Part shown: piece after piece, positions 1 through 60,090 of the stretch
Layout: every line of letters starts with the position of its first letter
Numbering within the stretch: position 1 is the stretch's first letter
Assembly: GCA_041658285.1 (NCBI GenBank)
Contig: JBBAAP010000011.1
Location: 3,308 to 67,307 of the forward strand
Length of the DNA: 64,000 nt
Source: Candidatus Brocadiia bacterium
GTDB lineage: Bacteria > Planctomycetota > MHYJ01 > JACQXL01
Reading direction: 5' to 3'
The notes under the pieces: generated by a model
The model's database searches: none
Told to the model about the DNA's origin: nothing
The model's input: only the letters and a program-made list of their open reading frames with translations
Translations under genes and position numbers: made by a program

Positions 1-123
1 AAACCGCTTGAATATTGAGAAAGAAAATCAGGTGTCTGTCCCACGATGAATAGAGGGGCAAAGAATGCTAGAGAAAAAGATGCTTACAAATATGCAAATG
101 ATAATGATTAAGGAGGTTGTTAT

Positions 124-1281
124 ATGAAAAATAGAACCAAAATAATTGTTGTTCTGGGGGCTTGTTTAATAGGCGGGGCGCTATATGGGTTTTATTCGCA
201 AATGAACAATAAGCCTGTGGCATATTGCCGGCAAGATATGAGTGCTCCTCTTTATACCAAAGAAGAAGGAGTTGTTAACCAGATGTGGGAGTCGGCAAAA
301 ACACCCCAAGAAAAGGAACTTGCGATTAGTAAACTTATTCAGATGGTTAAAGATAACAAAGAAGATATTTTACTAAGAGCGCACGCAATAAGAAAACTTG
401 GGAAAATTGGAGTCTTAGAGGTTCAGGACATAGCAAAAGATATCTCTGATACCGGGGTGTGGAGGAATAAAGTATCTGATATGGAGCACGACATCATAGG
501 AGAGATTATTCAGGAAAAGATGAAGGTTCAAGGTATTGTTGGTGATGAGCGGAATGAAAAGTATCATGAAGTTCATCGCGACCTGTATGTTAACGGCGAA
601 ATTTATAAATTGGGAATCTCTACGGAAAAGTTAATCCAGCTTGTTTTGGAAAAGGAAACTGATATTGATAAACGGAATGACGCGAAGCGTAAGTTAGAGA
701 ATATTGGTTTGAAACATCTTGATATTAGAGGTTGGTACGATAAAGTCGCATCTTTTATAGATGCCGCTAATGAAACGTACCACCGCTTGAGATATCTTCG
801 GGAAACAGACCCTGAGAAAAAATATCAATTATTATTGGATGTGGTAAAAAATAGTGGCGGTGAGGCTCAGGGCTGGGCAGAGGAACAACTTATTCTGAGC
901 GGTGAAGAACGAGCATTGCCTGATATAATTGAAGTGTTAAAACGTGCCTATGGGGACACGGAAGAAGAATATATTAAACGGGAAATAAAAACTTATAGGG
1001 CCAAGTTTGCCGTGGTCAAGGCCGCAAAAAACGACCCCACTGTATACGAAAAGATAGTAAATGGCAAATACTCTTTTCTTTATAGCGATGACGAGGAGAT
1101 ACGAGATTCTGTAACGTGGTGGGTTGCGAAAATAGGCGGGTTTAAAACAGACGAAATTATTCTTGGCACAGAAAACGAAGACAAAGACAAAGATAAGGAT
1201 AAAGAGCAAAAAGACAAAGAACACGGAGACGATAAGGACGGTGGCAAGGACGACAAATCCGGCCAGCCGGACAAGAAGTAG
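124..1281 (+). CDS. hypothetical membrane-anchored protein with a Lys/Asp-rich low-complexity C-terminal tail
   Basis: 385-aa ORF with an AGGAGG RBS about 8 nt upstream. N-terminal hydrophobic segment (IIVVLGACLIGGALYGF). Loosely HEAT-like repeats (AIRKLGKIG, AKRKLENIG). C-terminus is KDKDKDKDKEQKDKEHGDDKDGGKDDK. Locally AT-rich relative to neighbours. Confidence 0.5.
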   Translation: MKNRTKIIVVLGACLIGGALYGFYSQMNNKPVAYCRQDMSAPLYTKEEGVVNQMWESAKTPQEKELAISKLIQMVKDNKEDILLRAHAIRKLGKIGVLEVQDIAKDISDTGVWRNKVSDMEHDIIGEIIQEKMKVQGIVGDERNEKYHEVHRDLYVNGEIYKLGISTEKLIQLVLEKETDIDKRNDAKRKLENIGLKHLDIRGWYDKVASFIDAANETYHRLRYLRETDPEKKYQLLLDVVKNSGGEAQGWAEEQLILSGEERALPDIIEVLKRAYGDTEEEYIKREIKTYRAKFAVVKAAKNDPTVYEKIVNGKYSFLYSDDEEIRDSVTWWVAKIGGFKTDEIILGTENEDKDKDKDKEQKDKEHGDDKDGGKDDKSGQPDKK

Positions 1282-1536
1282 AGTCTAATGGCCTTAGCGA
1301 AGCATCCCTTTAGGGATAATGTTAGGGGGAAATAGCCAGAAAGCAGGTTAATCATATGGCTTATAAGTCATTCAATAGCGCGCATCGCTGGCAGGCGTTC
1401 GGCGAGAAGCCCGTCATCAGCATCCTGTGCACCGGTGTAGGGTGCTACACACATCAGAGACGGTAAAAATTGTTCTTATAGGATGCTTCGCTGTCAGTTT
1501 CTGTCCCTAAAACGAATATAACGCACTTTCAGGCAT

Positions 1537-1577
1537 GGGGGGATACCCCCCCAGACTAGGGGGGGATACCCCCCCTC
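1537..1577. repeat. two adjacent G-run/C-run palindromes (GGGGGGGATACCCCCCC) separated by agacta
   Basis: Read directly in the sequence. Perfect inverted symmetry around ATAC/TATC. Lies immediately upstream of a tandem array. Confidence 0.8.
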
Positions 1578-1589
1578 ACTACTACTACC

Positions 1590-2025
1590 CCCGTATTACA
1601 CCTCTACCCGTTCGGTAATACACCTCTATCCGTTGGGTATTATACCTCTATCCGTTGGGTATTATACCTCTACCCGTTGGGTAATACACCTCTATCCGTT
1701 CGGTAATACACCTCTATCCGTTGGGTATTATACCTCTATCCGTTCGGTATTATACCTCTACCCGTTGGGTAATACACCTCTATCCGTTCGGTAATACACC
1801 TCTATCCGTTCGGTAATACACCTCTATCCGTTGGGTATTATACCTCTATCCGTCCGGTATTACACCTCTACTTGTTGGGTAATACACCTCTACCCGTTCG
1901 GTATTATACCTCTACCCGTTGGGTAATACACCTCTATCCGTTCGGTAATACACCTCTATCCGTTCGGTAATACACCTCTACCTGTTTGGTAATACACCTA
2001 GACTTGTTTGGAATTGCACCTCTAC
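1590..2025. repeat. direct tandem array, about 20 copies of a 22-bp unit (consensus about GGTAATACACCTCTATCCGTTC)
   Basis: Units alternate between minor variants (ccgttcggtaatacacc / ccgttgggtattatacc), visible by eye. No unique spacers between units. Confidence 0.9.
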
Positions 2026-2039
2026 TTTCCCGGCCCCGC

Positions 2040-2110
2040 TAAAGCGGGATAACGTGCCAGTACGTCACTTTGTTCCTACTGGCACTAACCCCGCTAAAGC
2101 GGGATAAGAC
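2040..2110. repeat. composite hairpin element: two CCCGCTAAAGCGGG hairpins flanking a GTGCCAGTA-N-TACTGGCAC hairpin
   Basis: ccccgctaaagcgggataacgtgccagtacgtcactttgttcctactggcactaaccccgctaaagcgggataag. Related copies at 37845-37890, 35415-35460 and 60056-60085. Confidence 0.7.
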
Positions 2111-2420
2111 CCAGTCCCTAAAAATTTACTGCGTTTGCCCTCGCTTGCTTCAGGCAGGGGTAGGTGCTGTAGACAGGTTCTAACAGCTGAGCTATAAATC
2201 AGGGTTCAGGACGCTTTTTGTGCCCCTACGCACCATGTTCTACAGGGCCTGTGGCTCTGTTACTTACGGGGACTACTTCTGCCATCTTCGGGTGCTATTC
2301 CTGCCATTTTCAGGGACTAGAAGAGTGGGTGTAAGGGGTAGGGGGGAGGGGTACGGTATCTGTTACTCACTTTGAATAAAAAACATAACATTTTGCTTAA
2401 ATAACTATTATAATGCATAT

Positions 2421-2455
2421 TCGGTAGGGGGGGGGATACCTACCCCCTCCCCACT
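2421..2455. repeat. G-run/C-run palindrome (GGTAGGGGGGGGGATACCTACCCCCTCCCC)
   Basis: Imperfect palindrome of the same type as 1537-1577 and 53812-53852. Directly precedes the second tandem array. Confidence 0.7.
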
Positions 2456-2459
2456 TAAC

Positions 2460-2935
2460 CTCTACCCCCTATATCGATAACCCCTATAGGGAGTATGGAT
2501 AACTCCCATAGGTGGTGTCAGTTATCCCTATATGCGGTATAGATAACCTCTATTAGGTGTGTGAATTACTACTATAGGGCGTACTAATAATCCCCATAGG
2601 CGGTATCAATAACCCCTATATGGGGTGTGGATGACTACTATGGGACATATGGATAATACCTATAAGCAGTATCGATAACCCCTATAGGATATGTCGTAAA
2701 CCGGTATTAGGGATGTTGATAATTAGTATTAGGGGTATCGATAACCGGGACTGGGCGTATCGTAAACCAGGATTAGGGATATTGATAACCGGTATTAGGA
2801 ATGTCGATAACGGGTACTAGAGGTGCCGATAACCGACATTAGAAGTGTCGATAATCTCTATAGGGTGTATCGTAAACGGGTCCCAGGGATATCGTAAACC
2901 GGTACTAGAGGTATCAATAACCCCTACCACTGTAA
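2460..2935. repeat. direct tandem array, about 21 degenerate copies of a 22-bp unit (consensus about TATCGATAACCCCTATAGGGNG)
   Basis: Strict 22-bp periodicity (tatggataactcccataggtgg / tgtcagttatccctatatgcgg / tatagataacctctattaggtg ...). The first ~270 bp are about 90% identical to 53838-54115. Confidence 0.9.
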
Positions 2936-3057
2936 AAAAAATATGTGATGGCTACTGCCGTATTGCCGGGAATACAATTTATTCCAGCGGGGGTAGGCAG
3001 AGCTTTTCTTAAGGTCTTAGGCAATCACGCCGATAAAAGTATTTTACAGGAGAATAT

Positions 3058-4152
3058 ATGCGTATCCTCAATGTCGTCGGGGCCAGGCCTAATTTCATCA
3101 AGATTGCCCCGTTCCTGCACGCCGCCAAAAAGTATCGCAGCCTGGATATGGTCCTGGTCCATACCGGCCAGCATTACGACTACAATATGTCGCAGGTGTT
3201 CTTCAATGATTTGTGCCTGCCCAAGCCGGATATCCATTTAGGCATAGGGTCGGGCAGCCACGCCGGGCAGACCGGCCGGATAATGATGGCTCTGGATAAG
3301 GCAATCGAGCGGATAAAGCCGTCTTTGGTAGTGGTGGTGGGCGATGTTAACTCGACCCTGGCCGGTGCGCTGGTGGCGGCCAAGCTCCATATACCAATTG
3401 CCCATATCGAGGCCGGTGTTCGGAGTTTTGACAAGCGCATGCCCGAAGAGGTCAACCGGGTGGTAACCGATTCGGTGTCCGATTACCTGTTCGCGCCTTC
3501 GGATACGGCCCGTCGTAACCTGATAAATGAGGACGCCAGCCCGGCGAATATCTTCGTGGTCGGCAACATAATGATAGATGCGCTCAAGTTCTATTACCGG
3601 CCGACTGATTTTACGGGCAGGCACAAACTGGCGCCAAAGGGCTACGCTATGGTTACTCTTCACCGGCCGGCCAATGTGGATGATAAATCCGTTCTGAGCG
3701 GTATCATAAAGGCGTTGATAGCCATCAGCCGCGACGTACCGGTATTTTTCCCGGTCCATCCCCGGACCAGGAAACAACTGGATAAATTTAATTTATTGAA
3801 GGACATTAAGCGCGCCGGCAATATCATAACGTCCGAGCCGCTGGGTTATATCGATTCGCTTAACGCTATAAAGAATGCGCGGTTGGTGCTGACCGATTCG
3901 GGCGGGGTGCAGGAAGAGGCCGTGGCATTCCGGGTGCCGTGCTTGACCTTGCGCCAGACAACCGAATGGGTCGAGACCATTGGAAAAGGCAACAGCCTGG
4001 CCGGCAATAAGCCGGGGTTGATTATCAAGCTGGCTCAGGGCATATTGCGCAAAGGGGTGAAGGTTTCGTCCGGGGCAAGCATACCTCTCTGGGACGGCCG
4101 GGCGTCAGAGCGGATGATGGGTGTTATTTCTCGGAGACTTTCCCGGAGCTGA
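3058..4152 (+). CDS. wecB: UDP-N-acetylglucosamine 2-epimerase (non-hydrolysing)
   Basis: 364 aa. Family hallmark segments: N-terminal RPNFIKIAP, HTGQHYD, and HIEAGVRSFDKRMPEEVNR. Confidence 0.85.
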   Translation: MRILNVVGARPNFIKIAPFLHAAKKYRSLDMVLVHTGQHYDYNMSQVFFNDLCLPKPDIHLGIGSGSHAGQTGRIMMALDKAIERIKPSLVVVVGDVNSTLAGALVAAKLHIPIAHIEAGVRSFDKRMPEEVNRVVTDSVSDYLFAPSDTARRNLINEDASPANIFVVGNIMIDALKFYYRPTDFTGRHKLAPKGYAMVTLHRPANVDDKSVLSGIIKALIAISRDVPVFFPVHPRTRKQLDKFNLLKDIKRAGNIITSEPLGYIDSLNAIKNARLVLTDSGGVQEEAVAFRVPCLTLRQTTEWVETIGKGNSLAGNKPGLIIKLAQGILRKGVKVSSGASIPLWDGRASERMMGVISRRLSRS

Positions 4153-4357
4153 TACGGCATTCCTTGTCTTGTTCAACCAATCGGTCATATTCTTCGGAGT
4201 CTTTGGTCTGCTCGATCTTGACTGATTTAGGGACAGCTATGCCGGCCCATTCGCCGCAGTGATTGCAGACCACGAAAGGATTGGGGATTTCCTGGCCGTT
4301 CCTGATGATGTAATCATCCACCAGATTGACGCCGCAGTTCATACAGAAAATAGCCAT
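4124..4357 (-). CDS. small zinc-ribbon protein (two CxxC pairs)
   Basis: 77 aa with CMNCG ... CNHCGEW. Overlaps the wecB 3' end on the opposite strand, so protein-coding status is uncertain. Confidence 0.35.
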   Translation of the reverse strand: MAIFCMNCGVNLVDDYIIRNGQEIPNPFVVCNHCGEWAGIAVPKSVKIEQTKDSEEYDRLVEQDKECRISSGKVSEK

Positions 4358-4399
4358 AGCAAGCCTCCTCTCAGAGCCGGTTGTTCCCGGGACAATCAG

Positions 4400-5290
4400 T
4401 TATTTCGTTTTCGTCATGGCCAGTTTTATGACCATTGTTTTCAGCGCCAGTTCTTCGGACATCCGGCCTGTTTTTATGGCCAGGTCGGTTTCCAGCAGTT
4501 TGGCATATCTTTCCCGGAGCGTATTGTAACCGGGTTCGCGGCTGAAGAACGAGCGCAGGTATCCGAGAATCCTGGGCCAGGCTTCTCCTTCGCTGAGCAT
4601 TTTATCCAGTATCTCGACGGCCTTGCCGGCATTCCGGTTTACGATTGCCAAGGCTAGCTGCTTGATATCATAATCAGCATCTTTATCAACTAAATTCTGA
4701 ATAATTTCCAGGGGGATTTCCGGCTTGTTGCCTGAGGCCAGCGACAGTTTTTCGACCAGGGCGCTTATTTTGGACAGGTTATTCCCGGTGCCGTCTATTA
4801 TCAGCTTGGCGTTCTCGCGCGAGATGTTTTTGCCCAGGCGTTTGAACTCGGCCGCTATCCAGCGGGGCAGGTCGTATTCCGGGATAGGGGAGCATTCGAC
4901 CAGCCAGCCGTGCTTTTCGGCCAGCTTGGTTATCTTGCCTTCAGCGCCTTTGCCGGTCAGCGCCGGCGCCAGTATGGCCAGCACCGCGAATGTCTTTTTC
5001 TCGGACAGGAATTTGTCCAGGTTTTCCGACAGGGAACCGAACAGCTGGATATTTTTGATGTCAAGCGCGATGATGCGCTTTTTGCCGTCGAACGGCACCA
5101 TATAGATTTCATCCCAGAACGCGGCTTCCTTGAAATCACGCGATGAGAACCGTTTCATATCCGAGCCCAGGCATTCCCGGATTAATTTCAATCCCTGTTC
5201 CTTAAGGAAATCCTCTTCGCCGGACAGCAGGTAAAGCGGCATCAGGCTTTTGGCCGAGGCCAGGCGGGACACGAAATCTTTGAATAGCAT
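4400..5290 (-). CDS. holA: DNA polymerase III delta subunit
   Basis: 296 aa. N-terminal LYLLSGEEDFL motif typical of HolA; length and charge pattern fit. Adjacent and co-directional with radC. Confidence 0.65.
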   Translation of the reverse strand: MLFKDFVSRLASAKSLMPLYLLSGEEDFLKEQGLKLIRECLGSDMKRFSSRDFKEAAFWDEIYMVPFDGKKRIIALDIKNIQLFGSLSENLDKFLSEKKTFAVLAILAPALTGKGAEGKITKLAEKHGWLVECSPIPEYDLPRWIAAEFKRLGKNISRENAKLIIDGTGNNLSKISALVEKLSLASGNKPEIPLEIIQNLVDKDADYDIKQLALAIVNRNAGKAVEILDKMLSEGEAWPRILGYLRSFFSREPGYNTLRERYAKLLETDLAIKTGRMSEELALKTMVIKLAMTKTK

Positions 5291-6133: not shown

Positions 6134-6463
6134 TTATTCGTGTTCGTTCCTGCCGTCCAGTCGGCGGGCAGGGGCGTCTTCAATCACGCGCGGGACGCGG
6201 AAGAAATTCAACTTCTTGTCCGGCGCGTTCTGCAGGGCCTTATCCGTCGGCAAGCAGGGCTTTATCACGTCGTCACGCAGGATGTTCCCGGCAGAGTCGG
6301 CCTGTATTAATGGTCCTGCTTTGGTCACGTTGAGTTCCTTGAGTTCATCAACATGGTCGAGTATCTTCTTGAGATGGTTTTTCAGGGATTCCTTTTCGTC
6401 ATCCTTGAGTTTTAATCTGGACAGATAAGCCAGGTGCTCGATTAAGTTATTGTCTATATCCAT
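6134..6463 (-). CDS. gatC: Asp-tRNA(Asn)/Glu-tRNA(Gln) amidotransferase subunit C
   Basis: 109 aa. LAYLSRLKLKDDEKESL...ILDHVDELKELNV pattern of GatC. Confidence 0.7.
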   Translation of the reverse strand: MDIDNNLIEHLAYLSRLKLKDDEKESLKNHLKKILDHVDELKELNVTKAGPLIQADSAGNILRDDVIKPCLPTDKALQNAPDKKLNFFRVPRVIEDAPARRLDGRNEHE

Positions 6464-7002
6464 GCGGGTAAGATATTATAGACCGAGTATAAAGTCAATA
6501 AATTCTATTACCTCTTGTACCTGCGACAGATATTAGGGACGGGGGAAATTGGCAGTTCTTAGGATAAAAACTAATAGATTCGTTCCTCACTACAAGTTTA
6601 AACGCACTTTTAGCCCGGACACCAGTGGGGGTATATACACCTCACCGTATACCCTCATCCCAAAGAGCGTATCCGCCCGTTTCCGTAAGCGTATCTGCCA
6701 ATTCCGTTAAGCCGTGCTTGTCTTGAGTATTTCCGAAGGGCTTAACTGGATCTAAGTGCCAGTACGTTTTATATTTCTACCGGCACCAAGAAAGAACGGC
6801 CAGTTTTGCTCTGCTAATGTATGAATGTATGGTTGAAAGGATACATAGAATAGACATGAGTCCTTCGGGAATTATTTCCAAAATATTGTGGATATTCCTC
6901 GTTATTTATTGACGAAAATATTATAAAGACTAATATCATCAAAAGAACCGTGATATTGTCCGGAAACGAACAAGCCGTTCCTGGGAACGTAAAATAGGTT
7001 GT

Positions 7003-9261: not shown

Positions 9262-10443
9262 ATGTCTGTATTATTCGAGCCTGTCCGTATAAGCAATATC
9301 GAGGTCAAGAACCGGATAGTCCGTTCGGCCACGGCCGAGCGGATGGTGGATAAGGACGGCATCGCCACCGAACAGCTCGTAAAGCTCTACAAGATGTTGG
9401 CCGGCGGTGAAATCGGAACCATTATCACCGGTCATACTTCGGTTGATATCCGCGGCCGGGCCGGCTGGCAGATGACCTCGTTGGAAAGCGATGCGGCCAT
9501 CGGCCCGTTGAAACTTTTGACCGGTGCGGTGCATAAATACGAGTCCAGGATACTGGCCCAGATAAGTCACTGCGGCCGGTACGCGCCCGGAGCCATTATC
9601 GAACAGCGGCCTCTGGCCGTCTGTCTCGACCCCAACGAAGAACAGCGCGGGCAATACCCGCCTCAGGAAGCCGGTCCGGCTGATATCACGTATTTGATAA
9701 ATGCATTTGCCAACGCTGCGGTCCGGGCCCAGGAGGCCGGCTTCGACGGTATTCAGCTGCACTCAGCGCACGGATACCTGTGTTCCCAGTTTCTGTCGCC
9801 GCTGTTCAACCGGCGCACAGATGAATGGGGCGGTTCGGTTGAAAACAGGGCCAGGTTTTTGGTGGAGGTGGTAAAACTTATCAGGCATCGCACCGGGTCT
9901 GGTTTCGCCATCTGGGCCAAAATGAATTGTGAAGATTTCGTACTTCGGCAGTTGGAGCAAAGCGACTTACTGCCGAGTATGGTCGGCTGTAACTCATTAC
10001 ATTCTAACAGCCGATCCATCGAGGGCGGTATGACCGTGGAGGAAAGCATTGCCACGGCCAAGTTACTGAAAGCGGCCGGACTGGATGCTCTGGAGATAAG
10101 TGGGGGAGTCACATTTGATACGGTTATTCGCAAAGGAGTTCCGGACAAGGCGCCCGAGGCGTATTTCCTGGCCCAGGCCGAGCGGTTCCGGAAAGAGTTG
10201 CCTGGCTTCCCGCTGGCCCTGGTGGGCGGAATGCGTTCCTGCGCGGTGATGGAAAAAGTCGTTTCCGGCAAGGGCATCAACCTGGTCTCGATGAGCCGTC
10301 CGTTCATCATCAACCCGCAGTTCGCGCTGGAACTTAAGAAGGCGAAATCAACATCGACCTGCATTTCCTGCAACCTGTGCCTGGGCAAGAAGGGCGAGCC
10401 GGTCAAATGCCGGGCCTTGCCGAAAATACTTCCAATCGCTTAA
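9262..10443 (+). CDS. NADH:flavin oxidoreductase, Old Yellow Enzyme family, carrying a 27-aa in-frame insertion
   Basis: TIM-barrel OYE hallmarks (HSAHGYLCSQFLSP, RRTDEWGGSVENRARF). The expected ...EDF-VEGGMTVEES... junction is interrupted by LRQLEQSDLLPSMVGCNSLHSNSRSI. C-terminal CxxCxxC cluster. Confidence 0.8.
   Translation: MSVLFEPVRISNIEVKNRIVRSATAERMVDKDGIATEQLVKLYKMLAGGEIGTIITGHTSVDIRGRAGWQMTSLESDAAIGPLKLLTGAVHKYESRILAQISHCGRYAPGAIIEQRPLAVCLDPNEEQRGQYPPQEAGPADITYLINAFANAAVRAQEAGFDGIQLHSAHGYLCSQFLSPLFNRRTDEWGGSVENRARFLVEVVKLIRHRTGSGFAIWAKMNCEDFVLRQLEQSDLLPSMVGCNSLHSNSRSIEGGMTVEESIATAKLLKAAGLDALEISGGVTFDTVIRKGVPDKAPEAYFLAQAERFRKELPGFPLALVGGMRSCAVMEKVVSGKGINLVSMSRPFIINPQFALELKKAKSTSTCISCNLCLGKKGEPVKCRALPKILPIA
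9939..10019. mobile_element. 81-bp two-hairpin palindromic element (MITE/RPE-like) inserted in-frame within the OYE gene
   Basis: gtacttcggcagttggagcaaagcgacttactgccgagtatggtcggctgtaactcattacattctaacagccgatccatc. Hairpin 1 is TACTTCGGCAGT/ACTGCCGAGTA; hairpin 2 is TCGGCTGT-aactcattacattctaac-ACAGCCGA. About 45 bp are near-identical to 12120-12165 and 26 bp to 18342-18368. Length is a multiple of 3 with no in-frame stop. Confidence 0.7.
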
Positions 10444-14319: not shown

Positions 14320-15360
14320 ATGAGTAATGGCACGACTAAAAGGTTATCATTTTTAGACCGTTTCCTGACGCTCTGGATATTCCTGGCTATGGGCATCGGC
14401 GTGGCTATGGGGTATTTTATCCCTTCTATTGTCCAGTTCTGGGACCAGTTCAATTCAGGCACGACCAATATCCCCATTGCCATCGGGTTAATCCTGATGA
14501 TGTATCCGCCGCTGGCCAAGGTCAAATACGAGGAACTGGGCGATGTATTCAAAAATGTCAAGGTGCTTCTGCTGTCGTTGGTCCAGAACTGGATAATCGG
14601 TCCTATCCTGATGTTCGCGCTGGCTGTCATATTCCTGCCGGACAAGCCGGAGTATATGGTTGGCCTGATAATGATAGGCCTGGCTCGGTGCATCGCCATG
14701 GTCATAGTTTGGAACGAACTGGCCAAAGGCGACAGCGAATACGCCGCGGCGCTGGTGGCTTTCAATTCCATATTTCAGGTGCTGTTCTTCTCGGTCTACG
14801 CCTGGGTTTTTATCACCATACTGCCGGGCTGGTTCGGACTAAAAGGCATCGAGGTGAATATCACCATTGGGCAGATTGCCAAGAGCGTTTTTATATATCT
14901 GGGCATACCGTTCCTGGCCGGGATGATTACCAGATTCACTTTGATAAAACTTGTTAATAAAGATTGGTATCAGACAAAATTCATCCCGCGCATCAGTCCG
15001 ATTACCCTGATAGCCTTGCTGTTTACGATTATCGTGATGTTCTCCCTGAAAGGGGAGTATATCGTCAAGATACCGCTGGACGTGGTCCGGATTGCCATCC
15101 CTCTGCTTATATACTTTGTAGTTATGTTCCTGGTATCGTTCTATATGGGCCGGAAGGTAGGGGCCGATTATTCCAAGACCGTGACGCTGTCATTCACGGC
15201 GGCCAGTAACAACTTTGAGCTGGCCATAGCCGTAGCCGTGGCTGTGTTCGGGATAAACTCCGGAGCTGCCTTCGCCGCCGTTATAGGCCCGCTGGTCGAG
15301 GTGCCGGTGATGATAGGGCTGGTCAACGTGGCGTTCTGGTTTCAGAGAAAATATTATTAG
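14320..15360 (+). CDS. acr3: arsenite efflux transporter ACR3
   Basis: Start re-called at ATG 14320, after a GGAAGGAG RBS (the ORF track starts at 14290). [24 protein letters not shown] and the overall 10-TM pattern match ACR3 (BART superfamily). Confidence 0.8.
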
Positions 15361-16117: not shown

Positions 16118-16222
16118 GGGGTAAGGGACATCATTATGTACTATAAATGAATTAATTGGCGCCAGAGGTGTTTCGCAGTGCAGCCTGCCTTGCCGTCAGG
16201 CAGGGGTAATCAACGATTCATA

Positions 16223-16430
16223 GCATGCTGGGGAAGATTTGCAGCATGCTGGGGAAGATTTGCAGCATGCAGGGGAAGATTTTCAGCACGCTGAGGAAGT
16301 TTTCAAGCATGCTGGGAAAGTTTTCAAGCACGCTGGGGAAGATTTACAGCATGATGGGGAATATTTACAGCATGCTCGGAATGGTTTATAGCACGCTCGG
16401 AATGGTTTATAGCACGCTCGGGAACGATTC
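16223..16430. repeat. direct tandem array, about 10 copies of a 21-bp unit (GCATGCTGGGGAAGATTTGCA and variants)
   Basis: Visible by eye. The 78-aa ORF in the track (MLGKICSMLGKICSM...) is simply the translation of this repeat. Confidence 0.85.
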
Positions 16431-16560
16431 ACTCCAGGGTGTGAACGACTTGTTCGAATAACTTAGCGGGTTTGCCGTATGACTGAGGCGGCCTGAAAAG
16501 TGATTACTACGGGCGTAAAACGGACAAAAACTGTCACTTTGAGGGGCTAAAACGAATTAA

Positions 16561-16650
16561 ACGCGGAATCAGGAGGGTAGGGATAGGGTATGGGGAGGGG
16601 GTAGATACCCTACTCAGACGTAGGGGGTACGGTTATCGTATACCCCCATT
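16561..16650. repeat. G-run/C-run palindromes (gggtatggggagggggtagataccctac; gggggtacggttatcgtataccccc)
   Basis: Same architectural element as at 1537-1577, 2421-2455 and 53812-53852. Directly precedes a tandem array. Confidence 0.65.
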
Positions 16651-16885
16651 TGGTAAATATAGGTATACGGCTTGGTAAATCAAGGCTCACGGCTTGGCAA
16701 ATAGAGGTATACGGCTTAGTAAATCCAGGCGCACGGCTTGGTAAATAGAGGTATACGGCTTAGTAAATCCAGGTGCACGGCTTGGTAAATAGAGCTATAC
16801 GGTTTAGTAAATCCAGGTGCACGGCTTGGCAAATAGAGCTATACGGTTTAGTAAATCCAGGCGCACGACTTGGCAAATACTGGAG
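16651..16885. repeat. direct tandem array, about 10 copies of a 22-bp unit (alternating GGCTTGGTAAATAGAGGTATAC / GGCTTAGTAAATCCAGGTGCAC)
   Basis: 44-bp super-period, visible by eye. Confidence 0.85.
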
Positions 16886-36199: not shown

Positions 36200-36460
36200 T
36201 CAAACTGCTCCAATGTCTCATAGGACTGCTCCAATCCTATGTCAAATTATTATAATTGCTCATAGGACTGCTCTAATCCTATGACAAATCACTCCAACAT
36301 CTCACAGGATTGTTCAAATCCCTCAAGGGATTACTATAATCCCTCGCAGGATTACCACAATCCCTTGAAGGACTACTATAATCCTTTATCGGATTGCTAT
36401 AATCCCTCATAGGATTGCTAAAATCCTTCAAAGAATCACCATAATTATGTGAATATTATA
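36200..36460. repeat. degenerate direct tandem array (about 22-bp unit, ATAATCCCTCATAGGATTGCT-like, about 11 copies)
   Basis: Visible by eye. Units contain the internal palindrome TCCTATG/CATAGGA. Confidence 0.75.
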
Positions 36461-37844: not shown

Positions 37845-37890
37845 AGTCGGGATAACGTGCCAGTAATTCATTTCGTTCAAACTGGCACTA
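37845..37890. repeat. GGGATAACGTGCCAGTA-N20-ACTGGCACTAACC hairpin element
   Basis: Near-identical to 2055-2098. Loop sequence matches the hairpin at 60056-60085. Confidence 0.65.
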
Positions 37891-37982
37891 ACCGTCGCTG
37901 GCGGAGAATATGAGCCATATTAGTTGCCTTCCAAGCTTATAATAGGGTAGTATACTTTCAGGTTTGGTCAATATAATATAAT

Positions 37983-45456: not shown

Positions 45457-47601
45457 ATGTTCAAGCTTTCTAAAATCTGCGGTATTCTCTGTGTTCTCTG
45501 TACATTCGCTACGCTCAGTATAAACGTCTCAGTGGCAAATATTTACGCTGATCAGAACACGGACGCCCTGATTCAGAAGCTGTCAGCCAAGGACATCAAA
45601 ACCCGCCAAGAGGCCGTGCAGGAAATAGGCAGGCTTAACAACATCACCGGCGCGCGGCTGCTCCTGACCGCGGCCGACGACCGAGAGCTCCAGCCGGCCA
45701 TCATCCAATCGCTGTCCCTGTTTACCGACACAGCCGTGGTCAGGTTCTTGCAGTCCGAGGCGCTGGTTTTTCCCAACAACAACATCCGCCTGATTGCTGC
45801 CGGCGCTTTGGCCGGGGCCGACCTCAAGGGTGACGAGTATTACCGGCAGGTAATCATCCCGCTGTTCAAGTCATTGACCGATTCCTTCGTCGAGGTGCGC
45901 CTGGCCGTGCTTGAAGCCGTCAGCAACTATATTTCGCCCCGGCACACACCCCAGCGGATAGATAAGGACAACGGCATCTTTCCTATGCTGTTCCGGGCGC
46001 TGGATGATTCGGACTATCCCCAGGTGCGCGAGGGGGCTGTCTATGTCTTAATCAGGTTCATCGCCAACCAGGATATACTCAACCGGTTGCTGGAACGTTA
46101 CCGGTTCGAGGACAACCTGACCGTGCTATGGACCATCGAAGAACTGCTGGTCGAGAAATCCGGCCCGCAGACGCTTGAATACCTGGCCGATGCCGGGTTA
46201 AGCCATAACTCCATGCTCATCCGGGCGCTGTCCGCCAGGATTCTGGGCCGGCTCCGGGCTGATAAATACCTGGAACGGCTCCAGCCCGATTCGTCCGACA
46301 GCCGCGACGTTATTGCCGACAAGGCCTGGGCGCGGACCCAGATAAAACCGGCCACCAGCTGGCTCGCAATATCCGGCACGGCATTCACCTATGCTAAACT
46401 GCCGCCCATCCTGGGGTTGCGGATGAACGAGGCCAAGGAAAAGGCCTTGCGCGCCCGCGGCGCCTTGCTCCAGACCGAGCAGGCCGTGGCCAAGGGGCTC
46501 GACTGGTTGGTCCGGAACCAGGAAGACAACGGCTCCTGGAGCTGTGCCCGTCATAACCCCAGCCACGGCAACCTGTCACTGCCCGGGTTTACCTTTGACG
46601 AGGACGAACTGCTCGACCCGTCCGTGACCGGACTGGCTCTGTTGGCATTAATGGCATCGGGTAATACTCACCGCTACGGCCCGCATCACGATGCCGTGGA
46701 AAAGGGTATGAACTACCTGATTTACTGCCAGGACAAGGCCGGATGCATCAACCTGGCCAAGGACCACGTCCACGACAAACGCTGTCTTCGGAGCGGCGAT
46801 GACCACGGCGTGCTGGTCCGGCGTTACAACCACAACATCGGCACCATGGCGCTGGTGGAATTATACGCCATGACCGGTGACTCGGCGTTGAAACCCTACG
46901 CCCAGCAGGCGCTCGACCACTCGAGAGAATATGTCCTGCCCGAGTTCGGCTGGTCGTTCTACCTGGAGCCGACCGACATCGGCCCGAGCATATTTTATAT
47001 CTTCGCCCTGAGGATGGCCGGTGAAACCGACCTGATGGTCTCGCCGGACGACCTGACACGGGCTAAAAAATATATCAAGACCCTGACCGACCCGAAGACC
47101 GGCCGGATTCTGCATATCTGTCCCATACCGGTCTGCTACGGCGGGTTCGACAGCACCGCTAGCGGCATCGTCGCCCGGTTTTTGATATCGCCTTATGACC
47201 AAACCGAGCTTAAGGATGTCCAGTCAAAGGCGCGCGAATTCCTTAAAGGCCATCCGCCGGTCTGGCGGCCGATGTACCAACTGCCGTCCGATATGTGGGC
47301 CAGCCAGTTCATCCGGGGCGATATTCTCAACGAGTGGTACTGGTATTACGCCACGCTGGGGTTGCTGGCGATGACTTGTAGTGAGAGTAGCGAATCTAAC
47401 GGACCCGAATGGCAGTCCTGGAACCGGACGATGCAGTCGTTGTTATTGAAGCACCAGCGGCAGGGCGGCGACTGGGACGGCTCCTGGGACCCGGACGGGC
47501 CCTGGGCCAACGTCGGCGGACGGGTCTATTCCACCGCCTTTGCGGTGATGACATTACAGGCGTATTATAGCTATGATTTAGTGCCAGTGCGAACGAAGTG
47601 A
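45457..47601 (+). CDS. secreted HEAT-repeat protein with a C-terminal alpha/alpha-toroid (prenyltransferase / terpene-cyclase-like QW-motif) domain
   Basis: 714 aa with signal peptide. AKGLDWLVRNQEDNGSWS (QW motif) and HQRQGGDWDGSWDP...GGRVYSTAFAVMTL. Confidence 0.55.
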   Translation: MFKLSKICGILCVLCTFATLSINVSVANIYADQNTDALIQKLSAKDIKTRQEAVQEIGRLNNITGARLLLTAADDRELQPAIIQSLSLFTDTAVVRFLQSEALVFPNNNIRLIAAGALAGADLKGDEYYRQVIIPLFKSLTDSFVEVRLAVLEAVSNYISPRHTPQRIDKDNGIFPMLFRALDDSDYPQVREGAVYVLIRFIANQDILNRLLERYRFEDNLTVLWTIEELLVEKSGPQTLEYLADAGLSHNSMLIRALSARILGRLRADKYLERLQPDSSDSRDVIADKAWARTQIKPATSWLAISGTAFTYAKLPPILGLRMNEAKEKALRARGALLQTEQAVAKGLDWLVRNQEDNGSWSCARHNPSHGNLSLPGFTFDEDELLDPSVTGLALLALMASGNTHRYGPHHDAVEKGMNYLIYCQDKAGCINLAKDHVHDKRCLRSGDDHGVLVRRYNHNIGTMALVELYAMTGDSALKPYAQQALDHSREYVLPEFGWSFYLEPTDIGPSIFYIFALRMAGETDLMVSPDDLTRAKKYIKTLTDPKTGRILHICPIPVCYGGFDSTASGIVARFLISPYDQTELKDVQSKAREFLKGHPPVWRPMYQLPSDMWASQFIRGDILNEWYWYYATLGLLAMTCSESSESNGPEWQSWNRTMQSLLLKHQRQGGDWDGSWDPDGPWANVGGRVYSTAFAVMTLQAYYSYDLVPVRTK

Positions 47602-47661
47602 GCTTACTGGGACTTATCCCCGAAGCCGTTAGGCGGAGTGGGATAATTTTAACCGCTGATT

Positions 47662-53444: not shown

Positions 53445-53570
53445 TTTATTTCGACGGTCAAGCGAGACACCTGCCTGCGGCGCACAGGCAGAGACCAGAG
53501 CCTACCGGCTCGCATGTTATTCCACCATCAACACTTCGAGAAATATTAATATTCCCCCATTCCCATACCT

Positions 53571-53710
53571 TCCCCGGGTAGTATGGGTAACTTCCCCCGG
53601 TAGTATAGGCAACCTCTCCGGGTAGTATAGGTAACCTCCCCGCCTAGTATAGGTAACTACCCCCGGTAGTATAGGTAATATCCCCCCGTAGTATAGGTAA
53701 TATCCCCGTG
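53571..53710. repeat. direct tandem array, about 6 copies of a 22-bp unit (CCCGGTAGTATAGGTAACCTCC-like)
   Basis: Visible by eye. Confidence 0.8.
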
Positions 53711-53811
53711 AACGCTAGGGACACATCCCATCCCCGGTAACGCACTAACCAGGCCCCTTCCAGGCCGTACTTTTCTCGGTTTCCGCTCAAATCCTTATTT
53801 AATTCGAGATA

Positions 53812-53852
53812 GAGGGGGGGGGAGATACCTACCCCCCTCCCCCCTAACCTCT
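53812..53852. repeat. G-run/C-run palindrome (GGGGGGGGGAGATACCTACCCCCCTCCCCCC)
   Basis: Homologous in type and position to 2421-2455. Confidence 0.7.
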
Positions 53853-53859
53853 ACTTCCT

Positions 53860-54478
53860 ATATCTATAACCCCTATATAGAGTATGGATAACTCCCATAG
53901 GTGGTGTCAGTAATTCCCATAGGCGGTATAGATAACCTCTATGAGGTGTGTGAATTACTGCTATAGTGAGTACTAATAATTCCCATAGGCGATATCAATA
54001 ACCCCTGTAAGGGGTGTGGATGACTACTATGGGACATCTGGGTAATACCTATAAGCAGTATCGATAATCCCTATAGGATATGTTGTAAACTGGTATTAGG
54101 TGTATCGAAAACTGGGACTAGGCATATCGAAAACGGGGATAGATGATATCGGAAACGGGGATAGGGTGTATCGGAAACCGGGACTAGGCATATCGAAAAC
54201 GGGGATAGATGATATCGGAAACGGGGATAGGTGATATCTAAAACGGGGATAGGGTGTATCGAAAACGGGTAATAGGTGTATCGAAAACGGGGATAGGGTG
54301 TATCGAAAACCGGTAGTGGGTGTGTCGAAAATGGGGATTGGGCGTATCGAAAACCGGGGCTAGGTGTATCGAAAACGGGGATAGGTGATATCTAAAATGG
54401 GGATAGGTGATATCGAAAACGGGGATTGAGCGTATCGAAAACCGGTAGCGGGTGTATCGAAAACCCATACTACCATCA
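53860..54478. repeat. direct tandem array, about 28 copies of a 22-bp unit (TATCGATAAC...TATAGG grading into TATCGAAAACGGGGATAGGGTG)
   Basis: Strict 22-bp phase throughout. The first ~12 units are about 90% identical to 2460-2725. The spurious minus-strand 76-aa ORF at 54238-54468 lies within this array. Confidence 0.9.
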
Positions 54479-54516
54479 AAAAAATAAGTGATAATAAGAT
54501 GGTAGTGGATGGGGTT

Positions 54517-60005: not shown

Positions 60006-60055
60006 AATTTCTTTCCGATCCTTCTGCGCCATCGGCGCCATCAGGATCTAACTGC

Positions 60056-60085
60056 CGGTAATTCACTTCGTTCAAACCGGCAGTA
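60056..60085. repeat. hairpin CTGCCGGTAATTCACTTCGTTCAAACCGGCAG immediately 3' of tRNA-Gly
   Basis: Loop is identical in sequence to the 37860-37880 element. Possible tRNA 3' processing or terminator structure. Confidence 0.5.
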
Positions 60086-60090
60086 AAGAG

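Follow-up and report, generated by a model that had tools for sequence, protein, structure and literature searches.

The 22-bp iterons of the R6K gamma ori and of pPS10 occur in groups of about 3 to 7 beside a rep gene on the plasmid, where they define the origin of replication. Phased repeats are also found in parC of R1 (10 x 11 bp around a promoter) and in sopC of F (12 x 43 bp), and these arrays load a cooperative nucleoprotein structure. In Streptococcus pneumoniae the BOX elements are built as boxA-boxB(n)-boxC with units of 45 bp, and in Neisseria the guanine quadruplex (G4) of pilE, with its adjacent small RNA (sRNA) promoter, drives gene conversion of a coding gene. Satellites that are non-coding have been recognised in prokaryotes as an uncommon class of DNA (Subirana & Messeguer 2019, PMC6749651), and in a survey of 119 bacteria only 18 exceed 4 satellites per Mb (PMC6749651). 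In Planctomycetota, metagenome-assembled genomes (MAGs) are reported to hold an unusual abundance of structural variants located at intergenic tandem repeats (Okazaki et al. 2022, PMC9426551). Here we describe intergenic tandem repeats in 64,000 nucleotides from a Candidatus Brocadiia bacterium of the Planctomycetota (assembly GCA_041658285.1, contig JBBAAP010000011.1, positions 3,308 to 67,307 of the forward strand). This 64-kb stretch is called the window below, and counts for the source genome refer to it unless stated otherwise. The locus of interest is about 1.4 kb of non-coding DNA upstream of wecB which carries two arrays of 22-bp units, A and B. It is well supported by sequence comparison that this locus represents two adjacent members of a lineage-specific, chromosomal, non-coding family of modular tandem repeats, and the element would be an undescribed one with a structural or protein-docking role.

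The modules share with plasmid iterons the direct repeats of about 22 bp centre-to-centre and, within each unit, a conserved core and a variable spacer. However, they have 10-28 units, lie at several chromosomal loci per 64 kb and show neither a rep gene nor plasmid similarity. With parC and sopC they have the phased arrays in common, and the repeat blocks flanking the parC promoter may be likened to two arrays placed around a leader, although the modules lack parMR or parAB genes and are found at many loci of one replicon. BOX would be comparable as a dispersed intergenic module with conserved head and tail and a variable number of tandem units (as in array B and in array E2, described below), but it belongs to another phylum, and the modules have 22-bp units in far more copies, a strict helical period and an upstream array, so the likeness is one of analogy only. 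As in the pilE G4, a G-rich, structure-prone element lies directly downstream of a promoter-like sequence and beside DNA that recombines often; the modules, in contrast, are without donor and recipient genes, and their G4 is known as a sequence motif only. CsrB/RsmZ sponges and ToxI arrays likewise have a tandem non-coding unit behind a possible promoter, whereas here the 22-nt spacing is exact and there are no GGA-loop motifs, toxin gene, Rfam match or covariation. Prokaryotic satellites and the Planctomycetota variants resemble the modules as non-coding, dispersed families with copy-number variation, but no module of leader, G/C head and phased 21/22-bp array is described among them (PMC6749651, PMC9426551), and the window, with roughly 110 arrays per Mb, lies far above the 4 per Mb which few of the surveyed bacteria exceed (PMC6749651). 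The literature searches also gave no description of such a bipartite module across species. An earlier note on this DNA had stated that it knew of no described element of this architecture, which stands for the module in the literature searched but not for non-coding satellites and Planctomycetota repeats as such, which were already known.

The repeat locus upstream of wecB

The locus lies between an open reading frame (ORF) at 124-1281 without Pfam match and the ORF at 3058-4152, which encodes the UDP-N-acetylglucosamine (UDP-GlcNAc) 2-epimerase (wecB). The ORFs crossing the region of arrays A and B reach 51-55 aa at most. Its features, with the arrays taken from Tandem Repeats Finder (TRF), are the following.

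1503-1536, + strand: leader A, GTCCCTAAAACGAATATAACGCACTTTCAGGCAT, A/T-rich, with a -10-like TATAAC and an ACTTTYAGSC motif
1537-1575, no strand: head A, palindromes G6ATAC7 (1537-1553) and G7ATAC7 (1559-1575)
1593-2032, + strand: array A, 20 x 22 bp, consensus GTAATACACCTCTATCCGTTCG (TRF and unit register)
2034-2103, no strand: hairpin cluster, CCCCGCTAAAGCGGG at 2034-2048 and 2089-2103 around GTGCCAGTAC..CTACTGGCAC at 2054-2085
2267-2319, + strand: mini-repeat of 22 bp x 2.4 in the spacer separating arrays A and B (TRF)
2327-2351, + strand: canonical short-loop G4 motif GGGTGTAAGGGGTAGGGGGGAGGGG (regex scan)
2385-2426, + strand: leader B, A/T-rich, sigma-70-like ATAACA-18-TATAAT
2427-2470, + strand: head B, imperfect palindrome G9ATACCTAC5TC4 (2427-2452), then ACTTAACCTCTACCCCCT, in register with array B
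2471-2932, + strand: array B, 21 degenerate 22-bp units in a single register, consensus GTATCGATAACCCCTATAGGGG (TRF)
2911-2958, + strand: tail of the B-type element, AACCCCTACCACTGTAAAAAAAATATGTGAT, common to the tail of E2 at 54454-54500

The components reported in the earlier note were all recovered, namely two G/C palindromes, about 20 direct 22-bp repeats (20 units by register), a stem-loop cluster, a second G/C palindrome, present in imperfect form, and about 21 degenerate 22-bp repeats upstream of wecB, the whole in DNA which is non-coding as had been stated. In array A, TRF finds 18.5 copies with 88% matches, 0% indels and a score of 576; the final two units are degenerate, and 12 unit variants are arranged in a higher-order pattern. 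The palindromes of head A share a 22/23-bp register with this array. Array B has 61-66% matches and all its 21 units stand in one register. The clustered regularly interspaced short palindromic repeats (CRISPR), set aside in the same note, are indeed not what is seen, as the units abut head to tail without spacers and there are no cas genes or domains. An inverted repeat (AGCGAAGCATCC at 1298-1309 and GGATGCTTCGCT at 1480-1491) encloses about 170 nt upstream of leader A, with a fold z-score of only -1.7.

Recurrence of the module in the window

The earlier note needs one correction, in that the architecture is not singular: the A/B locus consists of two adjacent instances of head plus array belonging to a module that recurs. 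Using TRF and a lag-identity scan, at least 7 intergenic arrays with a period of 21 or 22 bp were found in the window. Control loci of 80 other genomes (about 1.18 Mb) and viral contigs (1.07 Mb) are essentially free of arrays that have four or more copies at a period of 21-23, 44 or 66, and the pattern in the window is far beyond chance.

When the regions were aligned at the G that opens each G run, they showed a shared plan. An upstream array of 21 or 22 bp, whose unit sequence varies by locus, comes first. Roughly 100-400 bp of spacer separate it from an A/T-rich leader, in which there are a hexamer resembling TATAAT/TTTAAT and a motif of the ACTTTYAGSC type. The head follows, composed of a G run, (A)TACC and C runs, and the plan closes with a downstream array of 22-bp units. 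Under this plan the A/B locus has head and array A, a spacer with hairpins of the repetitive extragenic palindromic (REP)-like type, and then leader B, head B and array B. The ACTTTYAGSC of leader A recurs exactly, in two tandem copies, at 6308-6361 of the metagenome contig L150, and there are looser matches at 16547-16573 and 6598-6617 in the window and at 4160-4190 in the related L200. Moreover, 10 of the 11 G or C runs of at least 6 nt in the window fall inside modules. The other members and a further array are given here.

6598-6787, + strand: minimal module, leader-like GTTTAAACGCACTTTTAGCC and head GGGGGTATATACACC..GTATACCC
6666-6712, + strand: the only units of the minimal module, about 2 of 22 bp, then a GTGCCAGTACG hairpin
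16215-16879, + strand: module C, with an upstream array of 21 bp x 10 at 16215-16429
16547-16573, + strand: leader of module C, then the G-rich head GGGGGTACGG..CGTATACCCCC (16572-16649) and the downstream array of 22/44 bp (16650-16879)
16575-16595: second short-loop G4 motif, in the head of module C (regex scan)
36200-36445, no strand: 21/42-bp array with an AATCC-N6-GGATT dyad, without G/C head or leader
53569-54500, + strand: module E, with the upstream array E1, 22 bp x 6.4, at 53569-53719
53786-53813, + strand: leader of module E, then the head G9AGATACCTAC6TC6 (53814-53845)
53860-54475, + strand: downstream array E2 of module E, 28 x 22 bp, then the tail; TRF gives a 22/66-bp repeat at 53816-54480

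The array at 36200-36445 is of the same period class and its membership of the module family is uncertain; it sits between two minus-strand genes.

Head B and the first ten units of array B (2427-2726) are 89% identical to 53816-54115 in module E, and the first 10 units of B pair one-to-one with the first 10 of E2. Past unit 10, B continues for 11 more units and E2, where a 66-bp higher-order repeat is present, for 18, and both finish in the common tail ..TACCAC..A7-8TA(T/A)GTGAT. Because head, units and tail are common to them, B and E2 are paralogous copies, 51 kb apart, of a discrete element of the form head + n x 22 bp + tail, and as in BOX the ends are shared while the internal units differ in number (21 vs 28).

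Homologous modules in related genomes

The search of related genomes proposed in the earlier note was productive, with homologous modules in L200, L150, L329 and L325-L328; this evidence comes from five independent loci. The window's WecB has the same sequence as an NCBI MAG protein labelled 'Candidatus Brocadiia bacterium'. The genomes nearest to the source are other Planctomycetota MAGs, and WecB is 79% identical in L002, the closest sequenced relative, and 70% in L200. In both of these dnaA lies upstream and wecB comes directly after rplK-rplA-rplJ (GH106-dnaA, rplK-rplA-rplJ-wecB), whereas in the window the ORF without Pfam match and the arrays stand before wecB (comparison of window 1-3057 with L002:4600-10000 and L200:4591-9800). 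As the relatives keep rplK-rplA-rplJ-wecB, arrays A and B stand at a synteny break specific to the source genome. The gene order beyond acrB differs too, with dsrE and a convergent Wzy gene in the window and groEL in L329, and from these differences around wecB and after acrB the modules coincide with rearrangement breakpoints. No arrays are present in L002 upstream of wecB or downstream of the dnaA-GH106 genes.

At another site (3984-4520) L200 carries a full module with a 21-bp array x 4.7, the leader TCCTCATTTAATTCGTTTTCAGCCCGTTTA, the head GGGGGGTGGGGGTACCCC and a downstream array of eleven 22-bp units GTATGGTTACCCCTATGCGGGG with 66-bp higher order, and these units are clearly related to the array-B unit GTATCGATAACCCCTATAGGGG. 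On the contig L150 two copies of the leader motif accompany the head GGGGGGTACCTCCCC and an array of fourteen 22-bp units. An AcrB orthologue (78% identical) is encoded on L325-L328 (four samples) and on L329 (groundwater), with a module directly downstream of acrB, which is the site of module E in the window. This module has a 22-bp upstream array TAAACTGCATTTCTTACGTTGC, an A/T-rich leader and the head GGGGGGTGGGGGGGGTAGAGTATCCCATCCCCCC, its spacer is partly alignable to the window, and the downstream array of L329 has about 22 units in a strict 22-bp register with the core GAGTATATT. To judge from these alignments, position and architecture are kept at the acrB site while the unit sequences are replaced. 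The upstream array there has 7+2 units in L325, L326 and L328 and 6+2 in L329. The copy-number comparison between relatives suggested earlier thus gave a difference of one unit, and it concerns the upstream array at the acrB site. Across the window and the homologous loci there are 15 arrays, 12 of 22 bp and 3 of 21 bp.

Three of the L325-L328 contigs end within the poly-G head. L327 (ERZ27254748 k141_151965) is the same as L325, L326 and L328 through the upstream array and departs directly after ..GGGGTGTCAGCA, about 320 nt past the acrB stop, its leader and head being replaced; this divergence is either a structural variant or a chimeric join. The ACR3 contigs end too early to show the site of module C. 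In L331, from the sample of L200, the contig ends in a C19 run (9658-9676) about 120 nt after ACR3-DUF5618, roughly at the position of module C, and this run may be the edge of an inverted module head.

The exact 25-mer of the array-B head gave no matches in GTDB genomes, and neither the array units nor the leader had an exact match in viral contigs. Taken by itself, the G6ATAC6 palindrome is a generic type of hairpin: viral contigs contain at least 120 matches, none with adjoining arrays. A metagenome scan for three copies of ACCTCTAY spaced 22 bp apart yielded at least 118 contigs, which were rejected as homologues, being nearly all unrelated tandem-repeat-rich DNA of many periods with chance-level similarity; L150 is the only true homologue from that scan. 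In an unrelated taxon (L083:8490-8730, and likewise L086, L088, L097, L103, L116 and others, on contigs reaching 1.2 Mb) two conserved 22-bp arrays adjoin each other, with about 6 copies of AAAATACCTCTACTTTTCAATG and then about 4 of GAATGTTATATTACTTTCGGTC, and the pair has a terminator on one side and a fumC/aspA-like gene on the other. Pairs of 22-bp arrays thus also exist outside Planctomycetota.

The window comes from a 92,689-bp MEGAHIT k141 contig (ENA ERZ27247322 k141_23397), and the earlier note had allowed that the arrays could be an artefact of assembly. Such an artefact of a short-read metagenome would agree with the way in which Logan and other contigs break within arrays or at poly-G heads. 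However, the longest exact internal repeat is 87 bp in array A and 19-52 bp in the other arrays, so each 141-mer in the arrays is unique. The independent Logan assembly of SRR8449812 has contigs that match the array edges exactly, agreeing base for base with the outer parts of B and E2 until they break inside the arrays, and four other assemblies, also independent, carry homologous modules. The arrays did not arise from misassembly, an explanation to which we give next to no credence. Since short-read contigs repeatedly end in arrays or poly-G heads, the modules are systematically under-represented in MAGs.

Apparent constraint and turnover of the units

In the units of B and E2 the bases T2 and A10 are invariant (47/47), conservation is strong at T4, A16 and G20, and the bulk of the remaining positions hold 0.1-0.6 bits. 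The core motifs occur in a single phase at every match, 18/18 in B, 25/25 in E2, 11/11 in L200 and 20/20 in A, where the core is ACCTCTA. Even in the degenerate arrays the register is perfect over about 500 bp with zero indels, which upholds the two-helical-turn geometry proposed in the earlier note, and this geometry appears actively maintained. The downstream array of L329 has a lag-22 identity of 0.51 (background about 0.22) and no register shift, and between the window-B and L200 units there are two offsetting 1-bp indels, the unit length being 22 bp in both. GTAT is found on the leader strand in four independent downstream-array lineages (the B family, C2, L329 and the mini-module). In addition, several array cores are loop-less dyads (TATCGATA, CAGCATGCTG and GGTACC). 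No complementarity was found between upstream and downstream arrays. The few invariant positions amid near-saturated units would favour a protein-binding array.

The arrays also turn over. Higher-order repeats with periods of 44 and 66 bp, whole-unit changes and the two-unit miniature show ordinary dynamics of slippage and unequal exchange, a picture that agrees with the Planctomycetota report, where the structural variants fall at intergenic tandem repeats (PMC9426551). In form the arrays are those of a satellite or a variable number tandem repeat (VNTR), with head-to-tail non-coding repeats, higher-order structure and a copy-number difference in relatives. They could thus be selfish or neutral satellite DNA, in which structure-prone heads would stall replication, slippage and unequal exchange would build functionless arrays, and uniformity would be due to concerted evolution with occasional duplication to new sites, like the dispersal of BOX or of miniature inverted-repeat transposable elements (MITEs). 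The difference of one whole unit among close relatives, the minimal 2-unit copy at 6598-6787, the paralogous B and E2 51 kb apart, the position at synteny breaks and the absence from the corresponding L002 sites all agree with this explanation. Nevertheless neutral arrays are expected to have indels and varied periods, whereas here 15/15 arrays have a period of 21 or 22 bp, the register is unshifted even among old, diverged units, and invariant single positions stand beside change-saturated neighbours. Moreover the architecture is retained at the orthologous acrB site despite the replacement of the units. The long ORFs of the window contain no transposase, RAYT or reverse transcriptase, and orientation is inconsistent relative to GC skew. 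With regard to a REP or bacterial interspersed mosaic element (BIME) system mobilised by an IS200/IS605-like RAYT, the window shows REP-like hairpins and no RAYT. The fixed period, the indel-free register and the invariant bases seem hard to reconcile with unconstrained satellite drift, and we consider functionless satellite DNA a real possibility but a rather doubtful one. A strand bias like that of single-stranded DNA (ssDNA) transposons was rejected, as module orientation does not track GC skew in L329, L325 and L150.

Transcription, replication and partition

The modules might instead be transcribed, with the leader as promoter, the G/C head as a 5' hairpin and the array as a long RNA of 22-nt repeats, which would serve as sponge or scaffold for a protein or give rise to unit-length small RNAs; the hairpins directly following array A would then be its terminator. 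A -10-like hexamer is placed 10-18 nt before the G run in 5/8 leaders, against about 24% of background positions. Leader B is the best sigma-70-like match of all leaders (10/12, a score within the range of shuffled sequence), and its -10 ends 12 nt before the G run. A transcript G7AUAC7 would make a very stable 5' hairpin, the TCTC variants of the L200 unit could still pair with GGGG via G-U, and the co-oriented gene upstream of all five full modules is also in agreement with transcription. However, there is no convincing -35 (combined promoter score 7.6/12 vs background 7.0), no terminator-like site is predicted within 1200-3200, and no Rfam family matches, the results being tRNAs only or sub-threshold noise. 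The intra-unit hairpin CCCC..GGGG shows no covariation (shuffle controls p = 0.14-0.8) and the palindrome is missing altogether from E2-type units. In addition, known sponge RNAs do not require an exact two-turn spacing, and 3/5 downstream arrays would run antisense into a convergent gene. A repeat RNA is for us an unlikely explanation; a period of two helical turns, the lack of covariation and the loop-less dyad cores would favour a role at the DNA level over one at the RNA level. A sigma-70 promoter in the leaders was rejected, the -10-like enrichment being weak and without a -35 element.

Regarding the iteron or centromere-like protein-binding arrays of the earlier note, the pattern of a binding array found support in the invariant bases, but a plasmid iteron or centromere did not. 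An iteron origin or a partition centromere of an integrated plasmid or phage would account for tandem 22-bp units with classic iteron spacing and for the A/T-rich stretch adjoining head B. Against it, Pfam scans of the long ORFs in the window gave no rep, par (parA/parB or parM/parR), cas, integrase, transposase or reverse-transcriptase domain and no phage genes, and blastn against 72,556 plasmids and 50,697 phages gave no match. Housekeeping genes flank the arrays, there are at least 3 modules in 64 kb with 20 or more copies per array, rather than a single locus of few iterons beside a rep gene, and the module is kept at an orthologous chromosomal site in another species. The integrated iteron with a neighbouring rep or par gene which the earlier note had considered thus found no support in the 64 kb, and this explanation, largely refuted, has a very low probability.

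A DnaA-box cluster, as in oriC or a datA-like titration site, was suggested by six 1-mismatch boxes within 360 bp of array B, all in one orientation, and by the L200 module, which lies about 2 kb from dnaA, in a lineage whose ancestral neighbourhood is dnaA-rplKAJ-wecB. Nevertheless the array consensus TTATCGATA differs from TTATCCACA at two positions. DnaA-like boxes are found only in array B of the window, the homologous L200 array having none with up to 1 mismatch, and L002 shows the same dnaA gene order without arrays. Furthermore, the window has several paralogous modules and no GC-skew switch, and a DnaA site is accordingly most improbable. In the whole window there are 29 DnaA-box 9-mers (up to 1 mismatch), 26 of them on the minus strand, a strong strand skew in agreement with its uniformly positive GC skew.

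A proposed phased docking array

The best explanation, which we hold tentatively and at somewhat less than even confidence, is a modular family of elements working as phased multivalent docking arrays. The modules themselves are inherited vertically at some sites and duplicated to new ones, and whole units are gained and lost in the manner of satellites and VNTRs. Each downstream array would be a multivalent docking platform on double-stranded DNA, in which a conserved core of about 10 bp, beginning with GTAT, repeats exactly every two helical turns. A hypothetical sequence-specific protein could thereby load in a cooperative manner, aligned on one face of the DNA or wound into a shallow superhelix. 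The array would in this way act as iteron or parC-type arrays do, though it is not a member of either family. The upstream arrays would perhaps be docking platforms too, with other partners, and the G/C head and the A/T-rich leader may mark or nucleate one end of the array. Copy number would be altered by slippage or unequal exchange, possibly promoted by the hairpin- or G4-prone head, while unit length and contact bases would be held by selection. This mechanism is inferred and its protein partner hypothetical. The role could be local chromosome organisation, as a topological or transcriptional boundary or as a loading site for nucleoid proteins, which is likely given that the window has several modules and that they are placed at synteny breaks and in the gaps separating transcription units. 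A role in initiating replication or in plasmid partition is unlikely.

Several points weigh against a docking array. The absence of arrays from the L002 sites means that modules are dispensable at individual sites. No conserved neighbouring gene accompanies the modules, as the flanking ORFs are unrelated, and the binding partner is hypothetical. The units of the upstream arrays are mutually unrelated, so no single protein explains all arrays. The invariant bases and the fixed length could instead reflect the amplification mechanism or an RNA-binding partner, and the -10-like enrichment in the leaders hints at transcription. Finally, the homologous modules are few and the units of one array are not independent observations. 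HEAT-repeat neighbours were considered as partner genes and rejected as probably coincidental, the flanking ORFs being unrelated across loci.

A wider form of the docking array, which we regard as improbable though worth stating, is that the modules are cis-acting sites of an as yet undescribed chromosome-organising system of Brocadiia-lineage Planctomycetota. Many phase-locked 21/22-bp arrays per genome would be nucleated at G/C hairpin heads and coated by a sequence-specific protein on one face, and their sequence would turn over fast while period, position and architecture are kept.

Hairpin families and other features

The hairpin cluster at 2034-2103 is a copy of a dispersed REP-like or terminator-like hairpin and not specific to the locus. 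This family, (C)GGGATAAC-GTGCCAGTA..TACTGGCAC-TAACC, stands at gene ends independently of arrays and is conserved in related species. Its copies are at 2045-2090, 6756-6787, 37848-37893, 47581-47613 and 60043-60088 in the window, at L002:4300-4560 and at L200:4556-4577 and 14885-14910; one copy adjoins tRNA-Gly. A second family, CCTGCC..GGCAGG(GG), lies just past stop codons at 2140-2160, 6150-6173, 16186-16206 and 53470-53497 in the window and is found in L150 at 6160-6180 and 6755-6790; it is probably a terminator or another type of REP. Short-loop G4 motifs flank prs in L150 (415-439 and 1492-1514, one of them GGGAGAGGGTTAGGGTGAGGGGG), neither beside an array.

Significance

Bacterial genomes are usually thought to be poor in satellite-like DNA, and the known cases are mostly coding or unstructured. 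In the modules the period, the register, a few bases and the architecture are conserved from species to species while the units change, a signature usually tied to functional repeat DNA of eukaryotes. If a binding protein exists, the arrays would be a new layer of nucleoid organisation in Planctomycetota, a phylum of unusual cell biology, and would explain why its intergenic regions are hotspots of structural variation. Should the modules be sites of a chromosome-organising system, they would be a bacterial counterpart of satellite or centromere-type chromatin.

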